Below, in pieces: positions 2,528 through 62,003 of a stretch of DNA of 64,000 bases. This DNA is from an uncultured Candidatus Peribacteria bacterium (lineage in GTDB: Bacteria > Patescibacteriota > Gracilibacteria > UM-FILTER-43-11): assembly GCA_964458485.1 (NCBI GenBank), contig CAYWJA010000003.1, positions 30,524 through 94,523 of the forward strand. The letters are read 5' to 3'. The notes beneath the pieces are model-generated. The model worked only from the letters and a program-made list of their open reading frames with translations, was not told where the DNA came from and did no database searches. A program made the translations under genes and the position numbers. Every line of letters starts with the position of its first letter. Position 1 is the stretch's first letter.

Positions 2528-3622
2528 TTATTTATTTATTTTAATTTTCCTCCCCTTTTTCCTCCCAAAAACAACTGCACCACCAAGGCCTGCCGCGGAA
2601 AAAATTAACCACCCAACAAGTGGGCCGTTTTGCGGCTGCAAAGGAATACTGGCAACTGTTTTTTGAAATAAGGTGGCAAAAGGATGCGTTGAGCTAAGTG
2701 GCTGATTTACTATCACACCTACTTCATTTGAGTAATCACTTTCCTTATTATTACTATCGTAAGCAGTTACTGCAAAATAGTAGGTTTGATTATTGGTAAG
2801 ACCACTAAGTCGGTAACTGGTTAAATTTCCTATAACTCTACGTCTGGAATATTGACCACTAACTTGTCCGTAATAAATATTGAAACCAGACCTATATAAA
2901 TCAGTTGTACCATCCCATTTTAAATCAACATATCCAGACCCTGTATTAACTTTAAGATTTGTAGGGCGTTTTAATGTTATTACCGATGTACCCCCTCCTA
3001 TATTTGTATTTAATGTGGTTACTGGTGTTGAAGTTGTAGTTGTTACCACAGGTGGTGTTGTAACCGTTGGAGCTGCAATAACTCCTGGATTTAATGTAAT
3101 AGATAATTCTGCTGGTTTTTTAGATAAAATATTTAAAGGAAATCCTGAATCAATTATATTTACACTCGCATGGCCAAGTTCACTTACCTGATAATCATAA
3201 AAGCTGATTTTGGATGTTGCAGCAGTAGCTGCAATAACCTCAAAGTTCACAGAGGCTACTGTTGTTTCTGTCTTCGTTACACCTCCGGAAATATTAGATC
3301 GGCCAATTTTAACACGCCCTTCAGATGAAGCAACTGTATCTTCCCCTGGCGCAGATAATGTAAAAAGTGAACTTTTTGTATCTATTCCAGTGGCTTTTAA
3401 AGACTTTGCATCATAAGTTAACCAAGATCGAACGGAGATTATCTTATTTGCACTTGGATTCTTTAATACAATATCCACCTTAAATTTATCGCCTTTCTTG
3501 GCACTAGTTACAGAAGATTTCAGCATAAGCTCTGCATCTTTTGTAGCTGCTGCGTATGTTGGCACAATCCCTGATAGGATTATTACTATTGCCGTTAGTG
3601 TTGTTATTAGTTTTTTCATCAT
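2528..3622 (-). CDS. Secreted cohesin-like + FN3 protein with C-terminal sorting-signal-like tail (candidate anchoring scaffoldin)
   Basis: Signal peptide (..GIVPTYAAA). Residues ~28-165 are cohesin-like (KGDKFKVDIVLKNPSANKIISVRSWLTYDAKSLKA..VASVNFEVIA). Residues ~219-305 are FN3-like (PTNLKVNTGSGYVDLKWDG..YYFAVTAYDSNNKESDYSNEV). C-terminus is IPLQPQNGP + hydrophobic helix + GRKKGRK. Confidence 0.75.
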   Translation of the reverse strand: MMKKLITTLTAIVIILSGIVPTYAAATKDAELMLKSSVTSAKKGDKFKVDIVLKNPSANKIISVRSWLTYDAKSLKATGIDTKSSLFTLSAPGEDTVASSEGRVKIGRSNISGGVTKTETTVASVNFEVIAATAATSKISFYDYQVSELGHASVNIIDSGFPLNILSKKPAELSITLNPGVIAAPTVTTPPVVTTTTSTPVTTLNTNIGGGTSVITLKRPTNLKVNTGSGYVDLKWDGTTDLYRSGFNIYYGQVSGQYSRRRVIGNLTSYRLSGLTNNQTYYFAVTAYDSNNKESDYSNEVGVIVNQPLSSTHPFATLFQKTVASIPLQPQNGPLVGWLIFSAAGLGGAVVFGRKKGRKIKINK

Positions 3623-3623
3623 T

Positions 3624-3727
3624 CCTATTGGTGATCCTATTGGTGATCCGATTGGTGATCCGATTGGGGTTAAGCGGTTAAGCCCCTATTGGATTCCCTA
3701 TGGATCTCCCATTGGATTCCCTATTGG
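3624..3727. repeat. Tandem-repeat-armed hairpin, ATTGGTGATCC family
   Basis: Left arm (CCTATTGGTGAT)x4-like. Right arm CCCCTATTGGATTCCCTATGGATCTCCCATTGGATTCCCTATTGG. Loop around TTAAGCGGTTAAGC. Confidence 0.85.
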
Positions 3728-12035: not shown

Positions 12036-12044
12036 TTTTTTTCT

Positions 12045-12108
12045 AGGAGTCAGGAGTCAGGAGTCAGAAATCAGTACTGATTTCTTATTCCTTATTCCTT
12101 ATTCCTTA
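12045..12108. repeat. Tandem-repeat-armed hairpin (AGGAGTC x3 / TTATTCC x3)
   Basis: AGGAGTCAGGAGTCAGGAGTCAGAAATCAGTACTGATTTCTTATTCCTTATTCCTTATTCCTTA. Pairing needs G-U wobbles. Confidence 0.75.
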
Positions 12109-13326: not shown

Positions 13327-13407
13327 ATTTGTCAAGTTTGGTGTTTTTTCGTTAATCCTGGTTTGTAGTTGTGGTGAGTTTGTATGAAGACGGAGTGTAT
13401 TAACCCT

Positions 13408-13595
13408 GTTTGTCATCCCGCACTTGATGCGGGATCCAGATAATGAAGTGATGGTTATTTTACTAATACACTAATTATCCTATTTACTGATATTGCGAAA
13501 ATATTCGCATATTCAGATTGTCTGATTATAAGTAAATAAGTGATAATATAATTCATTAATCATATGGATCCCCAGTCAAGCTGAGGATGACAAAC
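13408..13595. mobile_element. MITE-like element, copy a (188 bp)
   Basis: Left end GTTTGTCATCCCGCACTTGATGCGGGATCC. Right end GGATCCCCAGTCAAGCTGAGGATGACAAAC. AT-rich core homologous to copy e. Confidence 0.8.
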
Positions 13596-13622
13596 GGTAG
13601 CAATATCATTCATACCATTAAG

Positions 13623-13643
13623 TCCGGGATGACAAATAGTGAA
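13623..13643. mobile_element. Solo right-end fragment of the MITE-like family
   Basis: TCCGGGATGACAAATAGTGAA shares GGGATGACAAATAGTGAA with the right end of copy c (18714-18734). Confidence 0.5.
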
Positions 13644-13737
13644 GCGATACTCCATTCAAAATAGGATGAAAATTATAGAGACAAATTTGCTTTTCCTCCC
13701 TGTTCATGCTATAATAAAGGGATATATTTGTATCTAT

Positions 13738-16341
13738 ATGCAAAGTAAAACAAAAAACATATTTAAAAAAATTGCGTTTTCACTGCTTTTTGCGGGAATA
13801 TTATGTATTCCAAATTTTGTAATGGCTGCTAGTGATCCTGGTGTTAAAAAATTAACAATTACACCAGATAAGCCAGGGCCTGGAGAATCAACAACCTTTG
13901 TGGCTACTTATGCAAACGAAGGCAATGCAAAATCCGGCAAGGTTGAACTGACAATCGATTACAATGAAAATATTTTTGAAAAAATTTCATTAAATGATTC
14001 AAAAAATTGTATCGACACAAAATTTACTGTTTATTGTACATTCGACAAATTACCCGCAAATTATACAAATACCATTAGCTTCAAGGCATCCGTAAAGTCA
14101 GCCGTAATAGTTGGTACTAAGTCTTTAGCAATTGCGCGAATAGATGATGTAAATAATCCAAATGACAATATCAAAAATAATTCCGCAAGTGCCACAACTA
14201 CTATTGCCCCAATGTCCAGCGGGAAAATATCTCAGGCGGGTCTCCCGGCGGCACTTGGATTAACAAAAAGTGTTAAATTAGAAAAGCCTTCTAAAAATCA
14301 GGGAGTTGCTGTTTTTGATGTAACAAATAATAAAAACTGGAAAACAAGCGGTCTTTTTACAACCGGTTTAAAGTTTATGATACGGGGTAAGGAAGCTTTG
14401 GCATGGACACTGGGTATTAGTGACGGTGGTTTTCATAATCCTGCGATAAAAAGCAGTTATTTAAAAGTTCTTACAATTGTTAATAGCTTGTTTATAATCG
14501 GACTTCTTGCGATCGCTGGCATGTGGATGTTTAGTATTTTGATTCCGAGAGCGTATTTAAAGCGAGTCGTATTAATTTATGGAATGGCTGTAATTTTTGT
14601 GAATTTCGCACTGCCGATGAATCAGCTTTTGATAGATACAACAAATCTTCTGCAAAAGACATTTATGGATGGTGTAAAGATTACAAATATTGTGGAAATT
14701 CCGAGTTATAACGATAAAAAAGCTGTTGGTTATCAGAATGAAACTGGTTTTCTTAAAAAAGCGGATACCAGCAAGCTTACATTCAATTTGAGTGATCCTA
14801 AAGTTGCGGCAAGTAGTACGTCGACAAAATCGACAGTAGCCGGTGCAGGTGCAAAAACTAAAACTACTACACCCACAATTACTGTCAAACCGACTAGTAT
14901 TAGTGTTGGGAAAATTACCCAGGATCCTTCAAAAACAAGTTTTATCGGTAATATAAAAAGTTCTAAAACAGCTGAGACAATTTCTTTATCTACTTATGGT
15001 AATGACCCGGAAATTAAATTAAACGCCAGCCAGAATGTTGAACTTATCAATTCAAATAAATTTAACCCAGACCAGGAACATTCAATTTTTGCTTTTGTAA
15101 TGATGATTCTTACGAGCCTTGCCTACTTTGGAATGGCATTAGTTCTAATATTACGGATCGTGATCTTATGGGCACTAATGATTGTATCTCCGGCACTATT
15201 CCTTCTAATAATCTTCCGTGCAACCCGTAGTTATTTTGTAAATTGGCTTGGGCTTTATGCAAGATGGTTACTAATTGGCCCACTAATGGCACTTGGAATT
15301 GCGGTTGTTGTGAACATATGGAAAACAACAGGACTGCCTATCACTAGTTCATATTCCGGAGGGCAGTTTGGTGTGTTTACTAATATCGGATTCTTTTTGC
15401 CTGGCAAAGATACAGCTAATACACTGAGTACAACGGGGCAAATGATGGAATATATTTTGTTTTTGATAATGCTATATCTGCCGATAATATTTGCATTTAT
15501 GCTAACCAGGCAAAAAACATGGGCTGGAGCACTTTCTACTATTATTAATAAAAAAGGTGCTGTGCAAAAGCCAATGGAGGATCCAATGGGAGGATCCAAT
15601 GGGAGGATCCAATCGGGGCAAGAAGGTAAAGAAGAATCTAAAGCTACATCTTTCACTCAAGATATTAAAGGATTTTTGAATGATAAATTTACAAAAACCA
15701 CTGCAACAGCAATACCTGGTAATATGAGAGGTGGTGATGTTACATCAGGTACCATTGCTACAGGAGAATCCAAACCTAAGATAGAAAATGCTGGACATTT
15801 TTTACCGGAAAATTTAGAAAAATCTGATATGAAGAGTATGGTTAATCTTGCATCAGGTGATAAAGGATCTCGCAATTCACATCAAAAAGCTATTGAAAAG
15901 TTAGCAAAGCCACAAAGTATTATAGACCCACAGGAAAGAAAAAAGGTTAGTGCGGTCAAAGAGGAAATTGGCAAACGTGCAGAACAAGGTGATGTGGAGG
16001 CTATACGTGTAATGGGGGAAATTAGTCAAGCTGAACAAAGTCCAGTAGGTGGATCCAATCGGGAATCCGTTGGGGACCCAGTTGGGGTAAGTACCGAAAT
16101 TGTAAAAGAAAAGGAGATAATTAAGGAAGAAAAACCCGAAAAAGATACGGCACAAACGTCAGGTGGTGCCGTAGGGGACGCACATGTGCGTCCTGATGAT
16201 ATGAAAAAAATAAATAAACCAAATGATGATGAAGATTCTGACGAAGATGCTGTAGATCCGCAACACGATGCGGATACAGATAAGGAGGACGAAGATGAAT
16301 CTGATGAGATAAAAGAGGAAAGGAAAAGTCGTCGCAAGTAG
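13738..16341 (+). CDS. Polytopic membrane protein, VirB6/TrbL-like candidate, with N-terminal beta-sandwich domain and long acidic C-terminal tail
   Basis: The ORF track starts at GTG 13639, inside a MITE fragment. ATG 13738 gives a normal signal peptide (MQSKTKNIFKKIAFSLLFAGILCIPNFVMAAS). About 6 further TM helices. It sits directly upstream of three pilin-module genes. The tail contains repeat-derived segments. Confidence 0.6.
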   Translation: MQSKTKNIFKKIAFSLLFAGILCIPNFVMAASDPGVKKLTITPDKPGPGESTTFVATYANEGNAKSGKVELTIDYNENIFEKISLNDSKNCIDTKFTVYCTFDKLPANYTNTISFKASVKSAVIVGTKSLAIARIDDVNNPNDNIKNNSASATTTIAPMSSGKISQAGLPAALGLTKSVKLEKPSKNQGVAVFDVTNNKNWKTSGLFTTGLKFMIRGKEALAWTLGISDGGFHNPAIKSSYLKVLTIVNSLFIIGLLAIAGMWMFSILIPRAYLKRVVLIYGMAVIFVNFALPMNQLLIDTTNLLQKTFMDGVKITNIVEIPSYNDKKAVGYQNETGFLKKADTSKLTFNLSDPKVAASSTSTKSTVAGAGAKTKTTTPTITVKPTSISVGKITQDPSKTSFIGNIKSSKTAETISLSTYGNDPEIKLNASQNVELINSNKFNPDQEHSIFAFVMMILTSLAYFGMALVLILRIVILWALMIVSPALFLLIIFRATRSYFVNWLGLYARWLLIGPLMALGIAVVVNIWKTTGLPITSSYSGGQFGVFTNIGFFLPGKDTANTLSTTGQMMEYILFLIMLYLPIIFAFMLTRQKTWAGALSTIINKKGAVQKPMEDPMGGSNGRIQSGQEGKEESKATSFTQDIKGFLNDKFTKTTATAIPGNMRGGDVTSGTIATGESKPKIENAGHFLPENLEKSDMKSMVNLASGDKGSRNSHQKAIEKLAKPQSIIDPQERKKVSAVKEEIGKRAEQGDVEAIRVMGEISQAEQSPVGGSNRESVGDPVGVSTEIVKEKEIIKEEKPEKDTAQTSGGAVGDAHVRPDDMKKINKPNDDEDSDEDAVDPQHDADTDKEDEDESDEIKEERKSRRK
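15571..15618. repeat. GGATCCAAT-type repeat arm inside the VirB6-like CDS
   Basis: CCAATGGAGGATCCAATGGGAGGATCCAATGGGAGGATCCAATCGGGG, translated PMEDPMGGSNGRIQSG. Confidence 0.8.
16042..16088. repeat. Second GGATCCAAT-type repeat arm inside the VirB6-like CDS (same orientation)
   Basis: CCAGTAGGTGGATCCAATCGGGAATCCGTTGGGGACCCAGTTGGGG, translated PVGGSNRESVGDPVG. Confidence 0.75.
16171..16193. repeat. GTAGGGGACGCA-CATG-TGCGTCC palindrome, in frame in the VirB6-like CDS
   Basis: Variant of the GGACGCAGATCTGCGTCC family with a CATG centre. Encodes VGDAHVRP. Confidence 0.8.
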
Positions 16342-16360: not shown

Positions 16361-16470
16361 TTTGTCATCCCGGACTTGCCTGCCCCGCCATAGGCGTGGG
16401 ATCCGGGATCCACCGATTGCGGGCAAACCATGGATCCTGATCCCGATAAAATCGGGACAGGATGACAAAA
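16361..16470. mobile_element. MITE-like element, short copy b (110 bp)
   Basis: TTTGTCATCCCGGACTTGCC...CCCGATAAAATCGGGACAGGATGACAAAA with three internal GGATCC sites. Lies between the VirB6-like stop and the first pilin start. Confidence 0.75.
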
Positions 16471-17535: not shown

Positions 17536-17565
17536 GAAGCTGTTTTGACTTATGGATAGGTTTAT

Positions 17566-17720
17566 ATTTCTGATTTCTGATTTTTGATTTCAGATTCGAT
17601 TTAGTATTTAGTATTTTTACATTTACTATCTGATTATTTAATTAATATGGTTAGTAAATGATAAATATCAGAATCCTAAATCTAGATTCGAATCTGAAAT
17701 CTGAGTTCTGAAATCTGAGA
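17566..17720. repeat. ~155-bp imperfect palindrome (TCTGATTTC units)
   Basis: ATTTCTGATTTCTGATTTTTGATTTCAGATTCGA... ...TCGAATCTGAAATCTGAGTTCTGAAATCTGAGA. Confidence 0.8.
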
Positions 17721-17853
17721 TAATCATTTTTTAGCTATAAAACAATAAAATTATAAAACGTCTACAAAAAGTTATCATTTCCCCCTTGTGCTAAAAAATG
17801 ATTCTTGTATACTTTTTTTGAACAATAAACACTGAAATCAACACTTAATTATC

Positions 17854-18570: not shown

Positions 18571-18615
18571 AAAAAGGCCTGTCGAAATATTTGAAGAATG
18601 ACGGGCCTTTTTTAT
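18571..18615. terminator. Bidirectional intrinsic terminator between the third pilin gene and argH
   Basis: AAAAAGGCCTGTC..loop..GACGGGCCTTTTTT. A-tract and T-tract flank the stem. Confidence 0.7.
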
Positions 18616-18643
18616 TTCTGATTTTAGATTTGTGATTTCGCAC

Positions 18644-18734
18644 TTTTTGTCATTTCGACCCTGTGGAGAAATCCCTTCGATCAACCGAAAGGGCAAGGGA
18701 TCCCTCCATGCTAGTCGGGATGACAAATAGTGAA
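18644..18734. mobile_element. MITE-like element, short divergent copy c
   Basis: TTTTTGTCATTTCGACC...GGGATCCCTCCATGCTAGTCGGGATGACAAATAGTGAA. Overlaps the 3' end of argH. Confidence 0.65.
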
Positions 18735-20029
18735 TCAGAAATGCGAAATTTAGAGATTTTTTTCTCCAAAATTTTCAACCCCAAATTCCCAGTTGCACCC
18801 AAATGTGTTTTGGATTTAATATTCTTCACAACATTCTGTTTTTTTATACCCTTCAATTTTAATGCAACCTGCCTGTAAGCATCACGGAAGGGTGTGCCAT
18901 TTTTAACCATATCGTTGACCATATCAGTGGCAAAAATTTCCGGATCAAAGGCTGCCTGAAGCTGCTTCGTATTTGGCTTTAAATGGTTAAAAAGGAGCTC
19001 TGTTATATTAATGCTCGAAAGTACAATGTCAAATGAATCTATTAATGCTTTCTTGGTTATTTTTAAATCTTTATTATAACCGGAAATTAAATTCTGACTG
19101 ACTGACTGAACTTTGAATTGCTCTCCTGCAACCACACTAACATTCGCCCTTAGAACCTCCATAATATCCAAATTTTTCTTTTGAGGCATAATACTGGAAC
19201 CAGTAGTGAGCTGATCATTTACTTTGAAAAAATTAAATTCTTTAGTTGTAAATAAAATTAAATCATTAGCTATTTTACCTAGTGTTAGCATAGTCTGATT
19301 AAGTACACCTATGGTAAAACTCTCAATCTTACCTCTGCTATTTTGACAATAAAGCGAGTTAATCTGTATTTTGGCAAAACCTAATTTTTTTGTTGTATAT
19401 TCCCTATCGATAGGTAGACTTGTGCCAAATCCTGCAGCAGATCCAAGTGGATTTTGATCGTTTAGATTGTAGGCGGATGAGATTGTCTGATAATCATCTA
19501 ATAACGATTCCACAAAACTACCTGCCCACTGCCCAACGCTGGATGGCATCGCCTGCTGCATATGTGTGTATCCCGGTATAGGTAGAAACTCATGTTTTTT
19601 AGCAAATTTTAAAATCGTCTTAGCTAGTTTAATCGTAGCTAATTGGATTATCTTAAGTTGGTGCTTACTAAACAATCTGATGGCGACCAAAATCTGATCA
19701 TTTCTAGATCTGCCCATATGCACTTTTTTACCAACTGCACCTAACTTTTTTGTTAAATAATTTTCAATAGCAGTATGGCAATCCTCATTTATTTGCTTAA
19801 GTTTAAATTTGCCTTTCTTGTTTAAAGTTAAAACTTCTTTTAATCCTTTTATGAGAGATTCTGCCTCTTTTTTGGTTAACAACTTTACTTTCGCGAGCAT
19901 TTCAACGTGTGCAATTGACGCCTGGATGTCGTATGGAAGTAAAATTTTATCCTGTGCAAGATTTACATCAATAATATATTGATTCACCATTGGGTGCATT
20001 TTTTGATAGGTTTCCCATAATTTACCCAT
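18650..20029 (-). CDS. argH: Argininosuccinate lyase
   Basis: Motifs GRSRNDQ, GYTHMQQAMP and SSIMPQKKNLD. Length 459 aa. The last ~26 codons and the stop lie inside a MITE-like element. Confidence 0.9.
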   Translation of the reverse strand: MGKLWETYQKMHPMVNQYIIDVNLAQDKILLPYDIQASIAHVEMLAKVKLLTKKEAESLIKGLKEVLTLNKKGKFKLKQINEDCHTAIENYLTKKLGAVGKKVHMGRSRNDQILVAIRLFSKHQLKIIQLATIKLAKTILKFAKKHEFLPIPGYTHMQQAMPSSVGQWAGSFVESLLDDYQTISSAYNLNDQNPLGSAAGFGTSLPIDREYTTKKLGFAKIQINSLYCQNSRGKIESFTIGVLNQTMLTLGKIANDLILFTTKEFNFFKVNDQLTTGSSIMPQKKNLDIMEVLRANVSVVAGEQFKVQSVSQNLISGYNKDLKITKKALIDSFDIVLSSINITELLFNHLKPNTKQLQAAFDPEIFATDMVNDMVKNGTPFRDAYRQVALKLKGIKKQNVVKNIKSKTHLGATGNLGLKILEKKISKFRISDSLFVIPTSMEGSLALSVDRRDFSTGSK

Positions 20030-22904: not shown

Positions 22905-23911
22905 GGGTAAATTGGGCTAAATAAATTCAATCCGGTGGACTGACTAAGGCCGAACATTAGGTTCATATTCTGAATAGCATTGCCAGCCGCGCCTTTTATT
23001 AAATTGTCGATTACGGCCTGAATTACAACTTTTTGATTAATAATTTGTATGCTGATATCACAAAAATTTGAGCCAATTACAGAAACAAGTTCTACTTCTG
23101 ATTTCATACGTATAAATGGGAAATCTTGATATGCCTTTTTAAATAAATTATCTAAATCTGATTGATTTATCTTTTTCTTTAAATCAATAAAAGCAGTTAA
23201 ATGTATACCCCTGGTAAATGGTCCACTAGTTGGCACAAAATTAATATTCGATTCAGACAATTTTAAACTTTGTATAATTTCCGGAATATGCTGATGAGAT
23301 CCGATTTTATAACTCTTCATATTATGTCCACGTATGGGGTGATGAGTATTTTCTTTGGCTGTTTTGCCGGAACCACTAGAGCCAGTGACAGCTAAAATAT
23401 CTACATGTTTAATAAAATTTGTAATTGGCAATAATACAAGTTGGGCTGCTATTGCAAAACATCCGGGATTAGCAATGTTATCTGATTTTTCAATAAATTT
23501 TTTCTGGTATTCCGGTAAACCATATGCAAATTTACCTATTAAATTCTGACTTTGATGACAATTGCCGTAATATTTTTTAAATAATGAGATATCTTTAATC
23601 CTGAAATCACCGGAAAGATCAATTATTTTAGTTTTTCCGATAAGTTCTGGAATAATTTTTTGAGACTGCAAATTGGGAAGTGCTAAAAATACCAAGTCAC
23701 TTTCATTTGCAACTATTGCCGGATCAGTATTTGTTAATTCAATATTGCAAACACCTTCTAAATGTGGATATACGTTGTTAATTGTTTCACCTGAATTATT
23801 TTTAGATATAAGGTATTTAAATTCGACATTTGGATGTCCGGCAAGAAGTCTTATTAGCTCAAGTCCTGTATAGCCCGTAGCGCCGATGATTGAGATACTT
23901 ATTTTAGACAT
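22901..23911 (-). CDS. argC: N-acyl-gamma-glutamyl-phosphate reductase
   Basis: IIGATGYTGLELIRLL Rossmann motif and NPGCFAIA active-site Cys. 336 aa. Confidence 0.9.
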   Translation of the reverse strand: MSKISISIIGATGYTGLELIRLLAGHPNVEFKYLISKNNSGETINNVYPHLEGVCNIELTNTDPAIVANESDLVFLALPNLQSQKIIPELIGKTKIIDLSGDFRIKDISLFKKYYGNCHQSQNLIGKFAYGLPEYQKKFIEKSDNIANPGCFAIAAQLVLLPITNFIKHVDILAVTGSSGSGKTAKENTHHPIRGHNMKSYKIGSHQHIPEIIQSLKLSESNINFVPTSGPFTRGIHLTAFIDLKKKINQSDLDNLFKKAYQDFPFIRMKSEVELVSVIGSNFCDISIQIINQKVVIQAVIDNLIKGAAGNAIQNMNLMFGLSQSTGLNLFSPIYP

Positions 23912-23919
23912 AATTTTAT

Positions 23920-23994
23920 AGTCTCATGTGCGAGTGCGAGTCTCAAGTAGCACATTAATAAACCTTGAGACTTGAGACATGCACTTGAGACTTA
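23920..23994. repeat. CTTGAGAC-family hairpin overlapping the 3' end of CDS 23955-25007
   Basis: AGTCTCATGTGCGAGTGCGAGTCTCAAG..loop..CTTGAGACTTGAGACATGCACTTGAGACT. Confidence 0.8.
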
Positions 23995-28411: not shown

Positions 28412-28437
28412 AAGTAGTGATATAAGGGTGTTCCGCT

Positions 28438-28589
28438 GTTTGTCATCCCGGACTTGATCCGGGATCCATGTAATAAAATAACGGCAATATTGCTAATCTA
28501 CATACATACTATTTTGCCCACTATTCAAAAAACGCATATTCGTTTTATACGTAAATGGTGGATCCTGAATCAAGTTCAGGATGACAAAA
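28438..28589. mobile_element. MITE-like element, copy d (152 bp)
   Basis: GTTTGTCATCCCGGACTTGATCCGGGATCC ... GGATCCTGAATCAAGTTCAGGATGACAAAA. Lies between convergent genes. Confidence 0.8.
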
Positions 28590-28598
28590 GGAAGCTAA

Positions 28599-29818: not shown

Positions 29819-29846
29819 GTAGTGGACGCAGATCTGCGTCCACTAC
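29819..29846. repeat. Perfect 28-bp palindrome GTAGTGGACGCAGATCTGCGTCCACTAC
   Basis: Read directly. Lies just downstream of the uvrB stop. Confidence 0.95.
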
Positions 29847-36736: not shown

Positions 36737-36841
36737 CCCATAGGGGATCCATAGGAGATCCATAGGAGATCCAATAGGGGTTGTAACCGAGCTAGCCCCA
36801 ATCGGATCACCAATCGGATCACCAATCGGATCACCAATCGG
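36737..36841. repeat. ATTGGTGATCC-family hairpin
   Basis: CCCATAGGGGATCCATAGGAGATCCATAGGAGATCCAATAGGGG ..loop.. CCCCAATCGGATCACCAATCGGATCACCAATCGGATCACCAATCGG. Confidence 0.9.
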
Positions 36842-36844
36842 AAA

Positions 36845-37747
36845 GTGTACAAACAAATATCTTCCAATAAGCGTAACACCTGGATCCTCCTAATAGTATT
36901 CATAATGTTCTTTTTAGGACTTGGATACTTAATGGGTTTTATTTATACAGAAAATGACCAGGCAGCAATTGGTTATATGGGTGCTTTTGGAATTGGCGCG
37001 ATGATTTATTCGACCATAAGTTATTATGCAGCTGGCAAACTAACACTTGCGATTGCACATGCAAAAGAGATTCAAAAACGGGATAATCCGACTTTATATA
37101 GAACTGTTGAAAATTTATGTATTGCATCCGGTTTGCCTACGCCAAAGATATATTTAATTGATGATACTGCTTTAAATGCTTTTGCGACCGGCAGGGACCC
37201 CAAGCACGCAGCAGTTGCTATAACAAAAGGGCTTTTAAATAAACTAGAAAAAACTGAGCTTGAGGGGGTAATGGCACATGAACTTTCTCATATTAAAAAT
37301 TACGACATCCGTTTACAAAGTTTTACAGTAGCGCTGATTGGATTGATTGCACTTGTTTCCGATATATTTTTGAGATCTATGTTTTATGGAAGGCGCTCAA
37401 ATAATCGAAGTAAGGGGGGTGGAATACTTATAATTATTGGTATTGTACTTGCAATTCTGAGTCCAATTATCGCAAAACTGATGCAACTTGCCATTTCCCG
37501 CGAACGAGAATATTTAGCAGACGCAAGCGGTGCACTTATGACGAGGTATCCGGAGGGACTTATAAAAGCTCTTCAAAAAATTTCTGCAGATCATGAGCCT
37601 TTGGAAGTTGCAAATAAAGCAACTGCACATTTATACATTGAAAATCCCTTAAGGAATGAAAAGGGAATGAAGTGGTTAAATAAATTATTTTCAACACATC
37701 CTCCTATGGAGGAAAGGATTAAAAGATTAAGGCATATGGGGACATAG
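36845..37747 (+). CDS. htpX: Zinc metalloprotease HtpX (M48)
   Basis: HELSHIKNYD HExxH motif, 4 TM segments and C-terminal STHPPMEERI. GTG start abuts a repeat hairpin. Confidence 0.88.
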   Translation: MYKQISSNKRNTWILLIVFIMFFLGLGYLMGFIYTENDQAAIGYMGAFGIGAMIYSTISYYAAGKLTLAIAHAKEIQKRDNPTLYRTVENLCIASGLPTPKIYLIDDTALNAFATGRDPKHAAVAITKGLLNKLEKTELEGVMAHELSHIKNYDIRLQSFTVALIGLIALVSDIFLRSMFYGRRSNNRSKGGGILIIIGIVLAILSPIIAKLMQLAISREREYLADASGALMTRYPEGLIKALQKISADHEPLEVANKATAHLYIENPLRNEKGMKWLNKLFSTHPPMEERIKRLRHMGT

Positions 37748-39092: not shown

Positions 39093-39187
39093 TTTTATTG
39101 TTGTCGGTTGCGGTTGTTGTTGTGTATATTGTAGGGGACGCAGATCTGCGTCCAATACCGTATATATATACAACACAACAATAAAAA
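39093..39187. repeat. Hairpin with GTTGTTGT/ACAACAAC arms around the GGACGCAGATCTGCGTCC core
   Basis: TTATTGTTGTCGGTTGCGGTTGTTGTTGTGTATATTGTAGGGGACGCAGATCTGCGTCCAATACCGTATATATATACAACACAACAATAA. Confidence 0.85.
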
Positions 39188-41031: not shown

Positions 41032-41050
41032 TTTTTCATTCTAAAATACT

Positions 41051-41242
41051 GTTTTGTCATCCTGAACTTGGTTCAGGATCCATAATAATGGAGTTATGGT
41101 TGTATTACTATAATACTTATAATCTTATTCTCCGATATGCGATTAATAGTTTTGTATATACCGAAAAACCGATAATAAGTAAATCAGTTATAATATAATA
41201 CATCAATCACATGGATCCCGCATCAAGTGCGGGATGACAAAC
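41051..41242. mobile_element. MITE-like element, copy e (192 bp)
   Basis: GTTTTGTCATCCTGAACTTGGTTCAGGATCC ... GGATCCCGCATCAAGTGCGGGATGACAAAC. Core aligns with copy a. Confidence 0.8.
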
Positions 41243-41318
41243 GGATTATTATCCTCTTATCTCTCAAACATTCAATTGCACTTATCCCCTCTTTGGGGTA
41301 AACTATTTCAGCCTGATT

Positions 41319-41436
41319 CCAATTGGAGGTCCTATAGAGGACCCAATAGAGGACCCAATAGAGGACCCAATAATTGATAATTAATTAAATGTTCAATTGG
41401 GTCACCAATCGGGTCACCAATCGGGTCACCAATTGG
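41319..41436. repeat. Tandem-repeat-armed hairpin (AATAGAGGACCC x3 / GGGTCACCAATC x3)
   Basis: CCAATTGGAGGTCCTATAGAGGACCCAATAGAGGACCCAATAGAGGACCCAATAATTG...CAATTGGGTCACCAATCGGGTCACCAATCGGGTCACCAATTGG. Confidence 0.85.
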
Positions 41437-41468
41437 ATATTTCAATTATATAAAATTAAATAAGAAGT

Positions 41469-44866: not shown

Positions 44867-45136
44867 TCAATTTATTTCATTATAATAACAATCCTCACAA
44901 TAAATAATATATGGTGTGTCAGGCGAATAAGTACTTGCTAGCTTAACATCACATTTATCGCATTTACGTTTATACAACCTTCTCTCATTTCGCAGTGACC
45001 TTCGCCTATTTCTCCTGCATTCATGGCAATTTAACGGAAGTGGTAACCTCTTTTTTACATAAAATGCTTTTTCCTGGGGAATTATGTTGAATTCCTTTTT
45101 GCATTGCCGACAATTTTTTGTAAGAGAATTTTTCAT
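44867..45136 (-). CDS. Stand-alone double zinc-ribbon protein (89 aa)
   Basis: CRQCKKEF..CHECRRNRR..RKCDKCDVKL..YCEDCY. Paralogous to the C-terminal 80 aa of the upstream gene. The start overlaps the upstream stop (TAATG). Confidence 0.7.
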   Translation of the reverse strand: MKNSLTKNCRQCKKEFNIIPQEKAFYVKKRLPLPLNCHECRRNRRRSLRNERRLYKRKCDKCDVKLASTYSPDTPYIIYCEDCYYNEIN

Positions 45137-46434
45137 TATTTAAAATTATTTAACCAGCAATCTAGACAATAAATTACGTAAGGGCTATCACTTGGATATG
45201 TAGTAATAAGAGTGTTTTTACATTTGTCGCATTTGCGTTTGTACATTGTTCTGTCATTACGGAGGCCGACACGCTGTTTGGCACGGCAATCAGGGCAATA
45301 AATAGGGTATTCAATGTCCATTTTTTTGTAAAATTTGATTTCTTTGTCGATAATTTTAAATTCATTTTTACATAGGGTGCAGTTTCGGGTTAATTCATTA
45401 TTTTGGGGATGCAGATCTGCGTCCCCTACGGCATCGCCTGACCCCTCAACTACGTTCGGGACATGCGTTGTTGCCGTATTTTTATTAATTAAATCATAAA
45501 ATGTAAAAATGCCTGCCTTTCTTAATTCTTTATCGATGGCTTTTGTGGTTTTTTTGTAAAAGTCTTCATCAACTTTTTGGTTCAAAATATAATAACCATC
45601 ATCTTTATGTTTTAAATAATTACAGCCAAAGAGATTTTTGGATTCCATACAGCATGTTGTCCATTTGCAGTCTTTTAGGTTTCCACACCAATGCAAATGC
45701 TGACAGTTAAAAAGGTAATGCGCGTATGCAATGTCATAACATAAATCCATTCCTGTAGGTATAGGGCCACAATCCCAGCTGTCTTTTGTTCCCATCTCCA
45801 GATTTGCCTGATTTATATATCCACTATCTTCTGTATGGCGTGTATCAAAGCACATGTGGCAATTTTTGCTGTGATAAATATAATCCCCTGTACAATTCTG
45901 CGTATCGAATTGATGGACGAACATGCGGGGGGTTTTCTTCTTTATTTTTTCTAACTTTTTATCAATCACCTTTAGGATATCAGAATTAGACATATCTAAA
46001 GTTTTCAATGCCTTTTTGTATTCTGATTCTGACTTTTTTTCATTAAATATATAATACTGTTTATCTCGCAGTCCAACGCAGCCGATACAATGTTTACATC
46101 TTCTTAAATCATAAGAAAAATGAATATCTTCGCAGTTTGCACTGTCCTGGCAATAATTAGAATTATAACAGCTATTGCAATCAACACATTCATAACAAAG
46201 CTGGCAATCTTCGCAAAAAGCACAGTCTGTACAATCATTTAATGCACGACTGTCTTCACAATAATAGGTATCGCGGCAATTTCCAGAATTAAAACACATG
46301 TAACAGTCTTTAGATACTGTAATGATGTCACCATAATCACAATTTTCACTCCCACGCGACCACGAGCCGCATTTAGGCGACCTCATGTATAAATTTCTGA
46401 AATCTTGGATGAAGGTTTTCGGGGAGATGTTCAT
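45136..46434 (-). CDS. Cys-rich repeat protein (432 aa) ending in the same double zinc-ribbon module
   Basis: Two blocks of densely spaced Cys (..DCTDCAFCEDCQLCYECVDCNSCYNSNYCQD..) each followed by a ..YYI(F/L)N(E/Q)K.. segment. C-terminus is CTLCKNEF..CPDCRAKQR..RKCDKCKNTL..YCLDCW. The linker carries an in-frame palindrome copy. Confidence 0.75.
   Translation of the reverse strand: MNISPKTFIQDFRNLYMRSPKCGSWSRGSENCDYGDIITVSKDCYMCFNSGNCRDTYYCEDSRALNDCTDCAFCEDCQLCYECVDCNSCYNSNYCQDSANCEDIHFSYDLRRCKHCIGCVGLRDKQYYIFNEKKSESEYKKALKTLDMSNSDILKVIDKKLEKIKKKTPRMFVHQFDTQNCTGDYIYHSKNCHMCFDTRHTEDSGYINQANLEMGTKDSWDCGPIPTGMDLCYDIAYAHYLFNCQHLHWCGNLKDCKWTTCCMESKNLFGCNYLKHKDDGYYILNQKVDEDFYKKTTKAIDKELRKAGIFTFYDLINKNTATTHVPNVVEGSGDAVGDADLHPQNNELTRNCTLCKNEFKIIDKEIKFYKKMDIEYPIYCPDCRAKQRVGLRNDRTMYKRKCDKCKNTLITTYPSDSPYVIYCLDCWLNNFK
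45405..45429. repeat. GGACGCAGATCTGC(A)TCC palindrome copy, in frame in the Cys-rich CDS
   Basis: Minus strand reads GTAGGGGACGCAGATCTGCATCCCC and encodes VGDADLHP. Confidence 0.85.
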
Positions 46435-46445
46435 GTTTTTTATAA

Positions 46446-46532
46446 GTCCTGTAGTGCTTTAGTGCTGTAGTCCTTTCGTGCTAATTGACAGAATAGAACG
46501 AAAGCACTACAGGACGACAGGACGAAAGCACT
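46446..46532. repeat. GTGCTGTAG-family hairpin
   Basis: GTCCTGTAGTGCTTTAGTGCTGTAGTCCTTTCGTGC..loop..GAACGAAAGCACTACAGGACGACAGGACGAAAGCAC. Confidence 0.85.
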
Positions 46533-47267: not shown

Positions 47268-47406
47268 TTCATTTCGCATTTTGCATTTCTGATTTCGCAA
47301 TCACATTTAGCATTTTTTCATTTGGCAATTTATTTGATTATTTTAGTAAATGCAGAATGCTAAATGTAAAATGACAATGCGAAATCTGAGATGCGAGATG
47401 CGAAAT
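47268..47406. repeat. ~140-bp imperfect palindrome (CATTTCGCAT units)
   Basis: The left arm CATTTCGCATTTTGCATTTCTGATTTCGCAATCACATTTAGCATT pairs with the reverse complement of AATGCTAAATGTAAAATGACAATGCGAAATCTGAGATGCGAGATGCGAAATG. Confidence 0.85.
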
Positions 47407-47529
47407 GTTTATTGTAGCATACAAGATCATCAAAAATTTTTCAATCATCAAAAGTAGCTTATGTTACATAATACAAAAAACCTCCTCGACAATATGCCAG
47501 AGAAGGTTTTATCTTGTAATTAGACGAAT

Positions 47530-48489: not shown

Positions 48490-48546
48490 GAAATCATTTG
48501 AAAATAAGAAATTAATAATGTATCGTTTCGGCGATATTAAATTATT

Positions 48547-48627
48547 AGTGCTTTAGTCTGGTAGTGCTTTAGTGCTGTAGTGCTTGCTATATAAAATAGC
48601 ACTACAGGACTACAGCACTACAGCACG
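48547..48627. repeat. GTGCTGTAG-family (REP-like) hairpin next to the RAYT fragment
   Basis: AGTGCTTTAGTCTGGTAGTGCTTTAGTGCTGTAGTGCTTGCTATATAAAATAGCACTACAGGACTACAGCACTACAGCACG. Confidence 0.9.
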
Positions 48628-48686
48628 TATAAAAAGTGTAAATACAGCAACAACGACAAATAATATATAAGTTAACGAAAAATAGT

Positions 48687-57502: not shown

Positions 57503-57569
57503 CGAGTGCAAGTGCGAGTCACAAGGTCTACTAACCCGCTACTTGAGACTGGCACTTGCACTTGAGACT
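57500..57569. repeat. CTTGAGAC-family hairpin
   Basis: TGACGAGTGCAAGTGCGAGTCACAAGG...CTTGAGACTGGCACTTGCACTTGAGACTA. Confidence 0.75.
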
Positions 57570-57578
57570 AAAAAAATA

Positions 57579-57606
57579 TTGACACCACGTCGAACATTGC
57601 TAGAAT
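57579..57606 (+). promoter_or_regulatory. Sigma70-like groESL promoter
   Basis: TTGACA, 16 nt, then TAGAAT. Confidence 0.65.
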
Positions 57607-59777: not shown

Positions 59778-60103
59778 CCTTTCCCAAATATCTGTCTTCG
59801 CTCTACAGAAAGTTCGCTTTGCTTCGATTTTTTTAGCTTCGGGGCCCACCGAAGGATACCCAAAACTAAAAAAATTCTACACATGCTCACTTTCTTATGA
59901 GCTCACTTATTTTATATTTTCCGAAAACCTTTAAAAACTAAGCCGCTTATCATAAATTGAATGGGCGGTTTTTGGAATTAAAATTTGTTGAACGACCGCC
60001 TGGAGTGAACCAGGCGGCCGCTTGTTGCGAGTTGGACATCAGCCTTCCTGAAGCACGGGGTATCCGGGCTTAGGTGACTACTGCCACAGTGGTTGTCCTG
60101 CCA

Positions 60104-61153
60104 TTACTTCCTCTTCCCCTTCTTCTTCTTCTCCTTCTTCTTCTCCTTCTTCTGCACGACCTCCTGTATGAACATGGGGCCACCCATATACATTATACCT
60201 CTGGTCACCGGCGCTCCCATGATGAATGGCCAGGACGACGGATTGATCTTCTTTGCGTTAAACGGGATCCTTTGGGCGGGGCGTATGGTGAAGATTACAC
60301 CGCTCGTGCCGTTCGTGATGTAAGCCATGAAAGACTTCTGCTTCATGAATCGGTCCGACTCGGTGTCGATGGTGAAGGTTCGATCGTAGATGCGGAGGCT
60401 GTAAATCTTGGGGTCGAGCCTGTAGGTCTTCATGCCCCCCATACGGCCGTGGTGCTCTAGCCTGACGGACTTCCTGGGCTTGGCCTTCTTGAGGTAGAAG
60501 TCATTCTTCTTGCCGAAGTAGTACCTCTTGTCATTCATGTGGAAGTAGGTGTAGACGAACTTCTTGCTGCTGGTGGGGTGCTTGATCTGGACCACGTTGT
60601 CGAAAACCCTGAGGCCGACAGCACCTTGGCGCAGCTTAAGCCCATCCTCCTCCTTTTTAGCATCCGAGATGTAGCGGTTGTGGTACTGCCAGTCGCCCTT
60701 CTTGTAGATAAGGAGCCCTGCGAACTTGTTGGAGTTGTCCTTGGGGCGCAAGGAGTAGATCATGGTCTGGCCGTTGGGGTACAGCACGGGCTTGGTGCCG
60801 TCGATGCGGTACTCCTCGGACCAGACGAGGGCGTGGTACCACACTCCGTTGAAAATGGCAACCTTCGACCCCTTACTGGAAGAGGTAAGCAGGAAGATGC
60901 TCCTCGTCCTCTTATCCTGGACCAGCCCGTTGAAGATCGCGGCCTCCAGGCCGTGCATGATGGGGCGTTTCTTGTACCCATCCGCAGAGTTTCCGATGTA
61001 GCTAGGGACACCCTTGGAGAGGGAGAAATGCACCGACTCGTCGCCGAGCTCGAAGCTGAAGTCCGCGGCGTAGCCGGAACCGGCGTAGGTGGGTGCGGTG
61101 CCCAGGAGGACAACCGCAAAAAGGGTGAATGCAATCAACTTTCGATAACTCAC
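60104..61153 (-). CDS. Secreted protein of unknown function encoded by a compositionally foreign high-GC gene
   Basis: 349-aa ORF. GTG start preceded by GGAGG with a 7-nt spacer. Signal peptide ..LLGTAPTYAGS. Lys/Glu tail QKKEKKKEKKKKGKRK. G/C-ending codons, unlike all neighbours. Confidence 0.75.
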   Translation of the reverse strand: MSYRKLIAFTLFAVVLLGTAPTYAGSGYAADFSFELGDESVHFSLSKGVPSYIGNSADGYKKRPIMHGLEAAIFNGLVQDKRTRSIFLLTSSSKGSKVAIFNGVWYHALVWSEEYRIDGTKPVLYPNGQTMIYSLRPKDNSNKFAGLLIYKKGDWQYHNRYISDAKKEEDGLKLRQGAVGLRVFDNVVQIKHPTSSKKFVYTYFHMNDKRYYFGKKNDFYLKKAKPRKSVRLEHHGRMGGMKTYRLDPKIYSLRIYDRTFTIDTESDRFMKQKSFMAYITNGTSGVIFTIRPAQRIPFNAKKINPSSWPFIMGAPVTRGIMYMGGPMFIQEVVQKKEKKKEKKKKGKRK

Positions 61154-61201
61154 TTCAACACCTCCATGGTATTGAATAATGATCGGCCAAAATTGACCCC
61201 T

Positions 61202-61252
61202 TCGAAGTCACATACTTAATATTAAATATTAAAACCAAATATGTGACTTCGA
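61202..61252. promoter_or_regulatory. Perfect 13-bp inverted repeat TCGAAGTCACATA-N25-TATGTGACTTCGA at the AT-rich edge of the GC island
   Basis: Read directly. Lies 49-99 bp upstream of the GTG start of the GC-rich gene. Confidence 0.6.
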
Positions 61253-61400
61253 GTTACTTAACAGGCAGGACATTTAGAGGTCATATAATATACCTCCAAA
61301 TCAATACCTGCTAAGAATTAATAATGTAAAAGAACATAGGATTATATATATAATACATATTTTATAATTTTGTCAACTTAAAACTCAAAAATATATTCTC

Positions 61401-61430
61401 TTGCAAGTCAATCCCAACATAGGTTAAAAT
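61401..61430 (+). promoter_or_regulatory. Sigma70-like promoter for 61461-62003
   Basis: TTGCAA, 18 nt, then TAAAAT. Confidence 0.45.
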
Positions 61431-61460
61431 ACGATCCTTTAATATATAAAATATATAATT

Positions 61461-62003
61461 ATGGTACAAGAAAAGCACAAATTAAGTGAATTATTAGATA
61501 AAAAGCTTGATATGAGCAATGTAATGGACCCTGGAGAAGTTAAGCAACTTTTCGAATTAATAAATTCTGCTGATAAATTAGAAGAAGGCTTTGCTGAAGC
61601 AGTTGCAAAGTTAATTAACACCCTTAGGACTGTAATGGGCGGAGGTATGAATAATGCAGAAGGCGATGATGGCTATATTTCAAGCTTATCTGATGGTAAT
61701 ATGCCTGGCTTTATCGTAAAGCTAACAAAAAATCCCCAAGGATTAGTGGTGCAAACAACAGACCCCGATAATGATCATTTATATAAATTGAAACTCATTG
61801 CTGACGGAGAAAGGTGTGGTATGCAATACGCATCGGAAGATGGAAAAGATGAGCCAAGTGGTGAACTTTCATTTAAAAGACTATGGACTATGGACGATGC
61901 TGGTAATTTTGCCGGCTCAACTCTTGATCATGAAGGCAGAAGTCCATTTAAAATTATCAGGCAGGAGATCGAAAGAGTGCTGGAAGAAGCTGAAGCTGCT
62001 TAA
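61461..62003 (+). CDS. Acidic hypothetical protein (180 aa)
   Basis: ORF with a sigma70-like promoter about 30 nt upstream. Confidence 0.5.
   Translation: MVQEKHKLSELLDKKLDMSNVMDPGEVKQLFELINSADKLEEGFAEAVAKLINTLRTVMGGGMNNAEGDDGYISSLSDGNMPGFIVKLTKNPQGLVVQTTDPDNDHLYKLKLIADGERCGMQYASEDGKDEPSGELSFKRLWTMDDAGNFAGSTLDHEGRSPFKIIRQEIERVLEEAEAA

Follow-up and report, generated by a model that had tools for sequence, protein, structure and literature searches.

The five repeated elements in this 64-kb window (the whole stretch of DNA that was analysed) are probably ORF-less dimers of a TGTC-tagged repeat of the CGTC superfamily of REPs, also described as an Ssn-related motif (SRM), the single-stranded DNA site of Ssn GIY-YIG nucleases. 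This reading rests on the anatomy of the elements, the covariation of their stems, the identity of the module across phyla, its adjacency to GIY-YIG genes in other genomes and the presence or absence of copies between relatives. The repeat class is known and very widespread, and its occurrence in CPR bacteria is new relative to the survey of Di Nocera 2013 and the main text of Chenal 2025. The window is chromosomal and rich in housekeeping genes (the arg operon, uvrB, topA, groESL and a secDF fused to a PPIase), with TrbL/VirB6-like and T4SS-pilin genes that are typical of CPR bacteria; the closest named homologs of its proteins are from Candidatus Peregrinibacteria.

Direct reading of the five regions gave a canonical end of the form (C[T/C]G)TTTGTC - ATCC NNNN - CTTGA - NNNN GGAT - CCA, with an 8-bp hairpin stem whose four outer pairs are constant (ATCC) and whose four inner pairs vary. 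TGTC stands directly before the stem in 10/10 modules, and in six canonical modules the 8-bp stem (ATCCNNNN/NNNNGGAT) is combined with the loop CTTGA and the tail CCA. Three inner stems (CGCA/TGCG, CGGA/TCCG and TGAA/TTCA) are complementary, as the preliminary description had claimed for all of them, but the fourth, TCAG/CTGG, contains one T.G wobble. Likewise, the loop said to be conserved is CTTGA in canonical modules but CTTGG at the 5' end of element e, and extra hairpins occupy the loops of element b. Each element is bounded by one module and its inverted copy, with tags outside in 5/5 elements, spacers of ~15-128 nt and inner stems that always differ between the two ends (heterodimers in 5/5, with combinations that include CGCA+TCAG, CGGA+TGAA and TGAA+CGCA). 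Reading all five confirmed the inverted bounding ends TTTGTCATCC...GGATGACAAA, as well as one solo end, at positions within 1-3 nt of those first proposed.

The 10-mer TTTGTCATCC occurs exactly 11 times in the window, and 17 times at one mismatch or fewer versus 5.2 +/- 2.2 times in shuffles. A covariance model of 125 modules, an analysis that the preliminary description had called for, recovered from the 64 kb exactly the 10 modules, gave one weak match to the solo end and none elsewhere, and scored six modules at 46-58 bits and those of b and c at 12-30 bits. Six of the 10 modules are perfect 8-bp hairpins with tag and tail intact, the hairpins of the elements fold well in a fold calculation, and module density in the window is ~1 per 6 kb. 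All elements are intergenic, and 4/5 begin within 30 nt of a stop codon.

The dimers are given here without strand and their modules with it. Element a (13406..13597; 55.9 and 46.5 bits) is a tags-outside dimer between divergent YidC-like and TrbL/VirB6-like genes and has an ssDNA fold z of -9.7. Its left module (13409-13439, + strand; stem CGCA/TGCG) is separated by an AT-rich spacer (13440-13563) from its right module (13564-13594, - strand; TCAG/CTGG, the stem with one T.G). The solo end, (A)GTCCGGGATGACAAATAGTGAA (13623..13643, - strand), is only weakly matched by the covariance model (9.3 bits); it is near-identical to the right end of c, including the 8 nt past the tag, and the sequence GGATGACAAATAGG lies at the orthologous position in the relative L118. 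A further degenerate remnant, GGATGAAAAT, is found at ~13664-13675. Element b (16361..16470; 23.6 and 30.3 bits) occupies the 136-nt gap between the stop of the TrbL-like gene and the first pilin gene. Its left module (16361-16412, + strand; CGGA/TCCG) carries a 23-nt GC-rich insertion in the loop, and its right module (16428-16470, - strand) has a 6-bp outer stem in which an inner hairpin, CCCGAT-TTTA-TCGGG, replaces the loop.

Element c (18644..18734; 12.3 and 23.5 bits) is a decayed dimer with a degenerate 5' end (TTTGTCATTTC...GAAATCC); its left module, TTTTTGTCATTTC-N11-GAAATCC, spans 18644-18678 (+ strand) and its right module 18694-18730 (- strand). The last ~25 codons (FVIPTSMEGSLALSVDRRDFSTGSK*) and the stop codon of the argininosuccinate-lyase ORF (18650-20029, - strand) are encoded by this element, a tail that resembles the in-frame Rickettsia palindromic elements. 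Element d (28436..28591; 57.8 and 53.1 bits) lies between convergent genes, with the stop of a TrmB-like gene 27 nt before it and that of the opposing ORF 10 nt after it. Its left module (28439-28469, + strand; CGGA/TCCG) and right module (28559-28588, - strand; TGAA/TTCA) enclose a spacer of 89 nt, part of which is related to those of a and e. Element e (41050..41244; 50.9 and 55.1 bits), 20 nt past the stop of an NTP-transferase gene and upstream of SecDF, pairs a left module (41053-41083, + strand; TGAA/TTCA, loop CTTGG) with a right module (41211-41241, - strand; CGCA/TGCG) across a 128-nt AT-rich spacer homologous to that of a. The AT-rich core common to the long copies a and e (77% over 94 nt) is present in part in d and missing from b and c, in agreement with the preliminary description. 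We tested whether these cores are decayed ssn genes or occur in other genomes, and neither was found.

Several other repeats share the window. A second palindromic family of 28 nt, GTAGKGGACGCA-GATC-TGCGTCCMCTAC, carries GTAG on both arms and looks like a GTAG-type REP. Its copies are at 16171-16198, 29819-29846, 39131-39158 and 45402-45429, two of them inside ORFs (the TrbL-like gene and the ORF at 45136-46434), and the copy in the latter ORF has a conserved counterpart near position 8682 of the relative L202. Units of 12 nt (CCAATCGGATCA x3-4, ATAGAGGACCCA x3.5) form intergenic tandem arrays at 3622-3672 (- strand), 36775-36854 and 41330-41449; those adjoining element e are missing from the orthologous L202 spacer. 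Long intergenic hairpins with arms of tandem 8-nt units (TTTCGCAT/TTTCTGAT and AGTGCTKT/AGTCCTGT) are found at 17565-17722, 18608-18642, 46437-46531, 47270-47407 and 48539-48634, and at 6780-6850 of L118. One such hairpin abuts element c, and a like repeat fills site b in L118. A 63-nt sequence is present in two inverted, 83% identical copies, both intergenic, after argC (23910-23972) and before groES (57517-57579). Finally, GC content is 0.47 at 60001-62000 versus about 0.35 elsewhere in the window, and the ORF at 60104-61153 (- strand) had no Pfam match; this region may be foreign DNA.

The module is not confined to this genome. A 29-nt pattern with 20 fixed bases and free stem bases (TTTGTCATCCNNNNCTTGNNNNNGGATCC), scanned against one representative genome per species, matched 117 loci or more, many of them CPR, drawn from roughly a dozen phyla, versus ~1 expected by chance. 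CPR hosts among the matches listed include Saccharibacteria, Parcubacteria, Moranii-, Uhr-, Doudna-, Davies- and Kuenenbacteria and others. The remaining hosts listed are Alpha-, Beta-, Gamma- and Deltaproteobacteria, Campylobacterota, Bacteroidota and Dependentiae, together with Margulisbacteria, Omnitrophota, Nitrospirales, Spirochaetales and one Bathyarchaeia bin. This last match (L031; contig DATGZC010000078.1, labelled Candidatus Bathyarchaeia) is one perfect hairpin dimer, either on a mis-binned bacterial contig or as a rare archaeal case. In most of the 117 loci listed, a second, inverted module of like grammar lies downstream, forming tags-outside dimers with spacers unrelated to those of the window; second-module flavours elsewhere include GGATCC..GGATGACA, GGATTCC..GGAATGACA, GGATTGC..GCAATGACA and GACCCC..GGGGTGAC. 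The 29-nt module was nearly absent from IMG/VR viral contigs (2 matches), and neither of the two contigs carrying it contained an Ssn ORF, which gives no support to viruses as carriers of its spread.

Among the matches listed, the variable 4+4 stem bases were perfectly complementary in 106/119 instances, representing 14 stem types, of which CGGA, TGAA, CGGG and CGCA were, in that order, the most frequent. Three of these four are window types, so the window's stem variants were not generated in the window genome: the same variants are the commonest across phyla. In an alignment of 125 modules (122 distinct) combining window and outside copies, 99.1% of cells in the 8-bp helix of the distinct modules were paired. 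Double changes occurred at 4/4 variable pairs (127 cells), a result equalled by 0/500 shuffles, and pairing fell to 7-55% once partner columns were shifted out of register, with 38-55% left after a slide of one column. Once outside copies are included, stem covariation is thus far beyond chance, which supports the original description of a repeated, non-coding family bounded by inverted repeats with covarying subterminal hairpins. Mismatches on the tagged strand, counted by hand over the listed stems and the a3' end of the window, were G.T in 7 cases versus A.C in 3, numbers in which strand-specific selection is not separable from chance.

The genes found beside the module point to a partner enzyme. 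When every ORF of the 117 loci listed was searched with a profile, five strong GIY-YIG matches emerged (L014, L047, L053, L073 and L080), all to proteins of ~95 aa with the motif YVYILASKRNGTLYIGVT...EHK that match PF01541 with E about 1e-17. Modules adjoin both sides of the gene at 5/5 of these loci. In L047 (Parcubacteria), L053 (Flavobacteriaceae) and L073 (Burkholderiales), the gene takes up the spacer between the two modules of a tags-outside dimer. By comparison, 994 kb of loci chosen without the motif contained 0 GIY-YIG ORFs of this kind. These Ssn-like proteins have at least 8000 close homologs and are ~70% identical between CPR groups, Omnitrophota, Burkholderiales and Flavobacteriaceae. 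Since such identity is unusually high for hosts so distant, their sequences suggest frequent horizontal transfer. A PDB search with the GIY-YIG profile returned one distant structure only (UPF0213, 1zg2). In the 64-kb window itself there was no ssn gene or fragment, and no GIY-YIG domain in any ORF.

A literature text search for the literal module sequence found no paper. As a class, the modules belong with the CGTC-tagged REPs, in which the tag CGTC or a variant (TGTC, CCTC) directly precedes an 8-9 bp stem starting A-T, T-A, followed by a loop of 4-5 nt and the tail CCA (Di Nocera 2013, PMC3733652). These REPs usually form HH dimers (tags outside), in many cases heterodimers, separated by 20-100 bp, and they lie near stop codons and occasionally within genes; the class takes in Neisseria dRS3 and Rickettsia RPE-4 and RPE-6 (PMC3733652). 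The window modules match every one of these descriptors: tag, stem, loop, tail, HH heterodimers and stop-codon proximity (within 50 nt). They are most like the CGTC-2 type (PMC3733652) in the TGTC variant, 8-bp A-T/T-A stem, 5-nt loop and CCA tail, and like CGTC REPs generally in their heterodimers with 20-100+ bp spacers near stop codons, their in-frame intrusion into an ORF (element c, argH) and their coexistence with GTAG repeats, as reported for Neisseria and Coxiella. They differ in that a and e have spacers (125-128 nt) near the upper limit of the range, the loops in both modules of b are enlarged and c has degenerated. The Di Nocera survey covered 5 phyla, with no CPR and no associated enzyme (PMC3733652).

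The enzyme came with the redefinition of dRS3 as an oriented sequence, the NTS (CGTCATTCCCGCGMAVGCGGGAATCYRG), and its generalisation to SRMs (Chenal 2025, PMC11893778). SsnA is a 94-aa, single-domain GIY-YIG protein (cd10448); 71% of ssnA homologs have SRMs nearby and 42% have them on both sides; 19% of SRM-rich genomes have no Ssn homolog (PMC11893778). SsnA binds the hairpin as ssDNA only and on the tagged strand only, cuts it a few nt upstream, and does not interact with RNA (PMC11893778). Cutting depends on the GTC before the palindrome and binding on the C after it; no particular loop sequence is needed and a lengthened loop is tolerated, but altering the palindrome while keeping the hairpin abolishes the activity of N. 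meningitidis SsnA (PMC11893778). Binding and cleavage biochemistry has been published only for the Neisseria and Wolbachia homologs, and in N. meningitidis the Ssn system lowers transformation by NTS-flanked DNA (PMC11893778).

The published SRM search pattern, HGTCWYN(0-2)YYVSBRHN(0-5)WNVSBRGN(0-2)RNCYNB (PMC11893778), matched 3/10 window ends (a5', d5' and e3') versus 0.03 expected; the other 7/10 fall outside it because of A/T at stem positions (TGAA, TCAG) or enlarged loops. Likenesses to SRM/NTS include the xGTC tag, the A-T/T-A-initiated palindrome, the short loop and the C after the palindrome. In other genomes, moreover, a module flavour like that of the window flanks ~95-aa single-domain GIY-YIG genes. 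The window copies also lie between genes and form a cluster in the neighbourhood of membrane and secretion genes (a-TrbL-b-pilins-c), and a...TrbL-like...b and b...three pilin genes...c recall the NTS-gene-NTS arrangements around surface genes in Neisseria, a parallel that is anecdotal with five elements. Differences are the stem, ATCC-NNNN versus ATTCCCGC in the published motif; a longer tag, TTTGTC; AT-rich stem variants outside the published pattern; and a host that is a Peregrinibacteria-like CPR bacterium, a group unnamed in the Chenal 2025 main text. In addition, the window has discrete dimers with a conserved spacer and no ssn, whereas Neisseria has large clusters.

The preliminary description had attributed the elements to a hairpin-recognising enzyme, and a recogniser acting on ssDNA was right in spirit. 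Its specific candidate, a Y1 HUH transposase (IS200/IS605 TnpA or RAYT) that recognises the subterminal hairpins of MITEs or REPINs, now appears very unlikely given the TGTC tag, the symmetric ends and the GIY-YIG association. RAYT-associated REPs are tagged GTAG (GTRG), and IS200/IS605 ends are distinct, asymmetric left and right subterminal hairpins with no terminal inverted repeats. The window ends, in contrast, are inverted copies of one module tagged TGTC. Admittedly, the layout is that of a REPIN (two inverted palindromic units plus a conserved spacer, with no visible target duplication), and the separate GTAG-tagged palindromes in the window mean that a RAYT could exist in the genome. 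However, a search for an IS200/IS605 or RAYT gene, recommended for the whole genome and covering the window here, found no Y1_Tnp or other transposase domain in any of the 45 window ORFs, and the gene between modules in five loci elsewhere is a GIY-YIG nuclease rather than TnpA/TnpB. Likewise, the survey of CGTC-class repeats found none of its species to have a tyrosine transposase flanked by them (PMC3733652). The resemblance to REPINs and RAYTs (Bertels and Rainey 2011; Nunvar 2010) lies in the model, a non-autonomous element that depends on a single-copy ssDNA-hairpin enzyme, and in the inverted palindromic pair, the genome-specific spacer and the singlets with the appearance of decayed dimers. 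The two systems differ in tag (GTAG versus TGTC) and in enzyme fold (HUH Y1 versus the unrelated GIY-YIG), and REP sequences are species-specific whereas the window module is near-identical across phyla.

The terminal inverted repeats of ~13 nt (C[T/C]GTTTGTCATCC) plus module, the small size and the AT-rich core might also suggest conventional MITEs that arose from an insertion sequence of the DDE-transposase type with the same ends, an origin that we regard as scarcely credible. An insertion sequence with such ends was found neither in the window nor among the 117 loci listed, and target-site duplication was not visible at a, d or e, a weak test in which no exact empty site was found. Furthermore, the "TIR" folds on itself and is shared across phyla with unrelated spacers, whereas IS ends are lineage-specific.

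A primary function at the RNA level, with the elements serving to stabilise the 3' ends of mRNAs, as attenuators or as small structured RNAs, is unlikely as well, and the structured RNA that the preliminary description had offered as a second reading found no specific support. The 4/5 elements that begin within 30 nt of a stop codon would be co-transcribed, their hairpins fold well, and REPs generally share this stop-codon bias (PMC3733652). Yet no Rfam family matched at the gathering score (below it, there was one spurious miRNA match, E = 0.15), and no U-tract terminator was found. Because the module is on both strands of every element, any transcript would carry one sense and one antisense copy. 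An RNA role also leaves unexplained why the TTTGTC tag and CCA tail, both unpaired, are invariant across phyla, a conservation that points instead to a protein-recognition site, and SsnA acts on ssDNA without interacting with RNA (PMC11893778). The elements may nonetheless affect RNA as a by-product.

Comparison with relatives indicates that copies have been gained or lost. In three near-identical strains (L119-L121; 99.5-99.8% identity), a, b and c are present unchanged; since there is no presence/absence polymorphism among these three, recent mobility is not shown. L118 is more distant (TrbL 71% aa identity; 78-83% nt identity to the window). There, element b is absent from the orthologous site, where an 8-mer-type repeat is found instead, and site a holds a solo end and a single hairpin carrying both tags (TTTGTCGTCCTGAACTTGTTTCAAGATAACAAACGG), probably a dimer collapsed by slippage between internal direct repeats. 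Conversely, L118 has a TGTC-hairpin dimer just downstream of its YidC-like gene (2667-2748) at a site where the window has AGGAGTC and TTATTCC tandem repeats (12036-12105). L202 is collinear with the window over 35.4-46.8 kb at ~81% identity and lacks element e, its spacer being about 320 nt shorter. A metagenome scan with ArgG for sites b, c and d in relatives returned short or distant contigs only. The absence of b from L118 and of e from L202, together with the dimer present only in L118, means that copies turn over: they were gained or lost after the window, L118 and L202 lineages split, with site a occupied throughout. The preliminary description had said that copies fixed at identical positions in all relatives would count against a mobile element, and this is not what the relatives show. 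The comparative evidence for dimer gain and loss consists of two empty sites, a reciprocal insertion and a dimer that has collapsed.

Alternatively, the organism may have no Ssn, having lost it or never had it, and the copies may be inert, decaying leftovers of past invasions or imports whose pairing was inherited. The absence of an ssn gene from the 64 kb, the decay of c and the solo end, the rearrangement of b, the lack of polymorphism among near-identical strains and the 19% of SRM-rich genomes without an Ssn homolog (PMC11893778) are all consistent with such relics. Nevertheless, 6/10 modules are still perfect 8-bp hairpins with tag and tail intact, and a density of ~1 module per 6 kb in a CPR genome of small size, combined with gain and loss relative to ~80%-identity relatives, argues for activity after the lineages split. 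We therefore consider relics a rather unlikely explanation.

If the elements are Ssn sites, as we favour, the host would be expected to encode a cognate Ssn that acts on the window copies, and Ssn or another agent would spread them. By analogy with the Neisseria system, the module would fold when DNA becomes single-stranded during replication, transformation, conjugation or repair; Ssn would then bind the stem together with the C immediately 3' to the stem, and would nick a few nt 5' of the GTC tag, on the tagged strand only. Compensatory stem changes would persist because a copy must fold to be recognised, and the loop would be of little importance, which fits the loop insertions in element b. 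Because palindrome changes abolish N. meningitidis SsnA activity (PMC11893778), one enzyme may not serve all four stem types. Elements a, d and e share a genome-specific spacer and therefore behave like REPIN-type non-autonomous derivatives, in this case of an SRM-ssn-SRM cassette, and such dimers come and go over evolutionary time.

Chenal et al. likened NTS-ssnA-NTS to an insertion sequence, raising the mobile-element idea as a hypothesis; mobility was not demonstrated there (PMC11893778). Extending this idea, SRM-ssn-SRM may tentatively be viewed as an insertion sequence with a mechanism of a new class, in which a GIY-YIG nuclease acting on ssDNA hairpins drives transposition or homing, with the ORF-less CPR dimers as its non-autonomous derivatives, mobilised in trans. 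If this possibility were borne out, a near-identical module and a ~70%-identical nuclease over a dozen phyla would represent ongoing inter-phylum spread.

The analysis gives this repeat a name and a likely partner enzyme, guards against misfiling it as an IS200/RAYT MITE or an RNA, and adds Peregrinibacteria and further CPR lineages to the known hosts of Ssn-type hairpin repeats. Because CPR lineages, whose genomes are tiny, rely on taking up DNA, a nuclease editing the ssDNA that enters the cell would be of biological relevance in them. In naturally competent CPR bacteria, the Ssn system could, if the insertion-sequence interpretation is correct, also gate which incoming ssDNA is retained.
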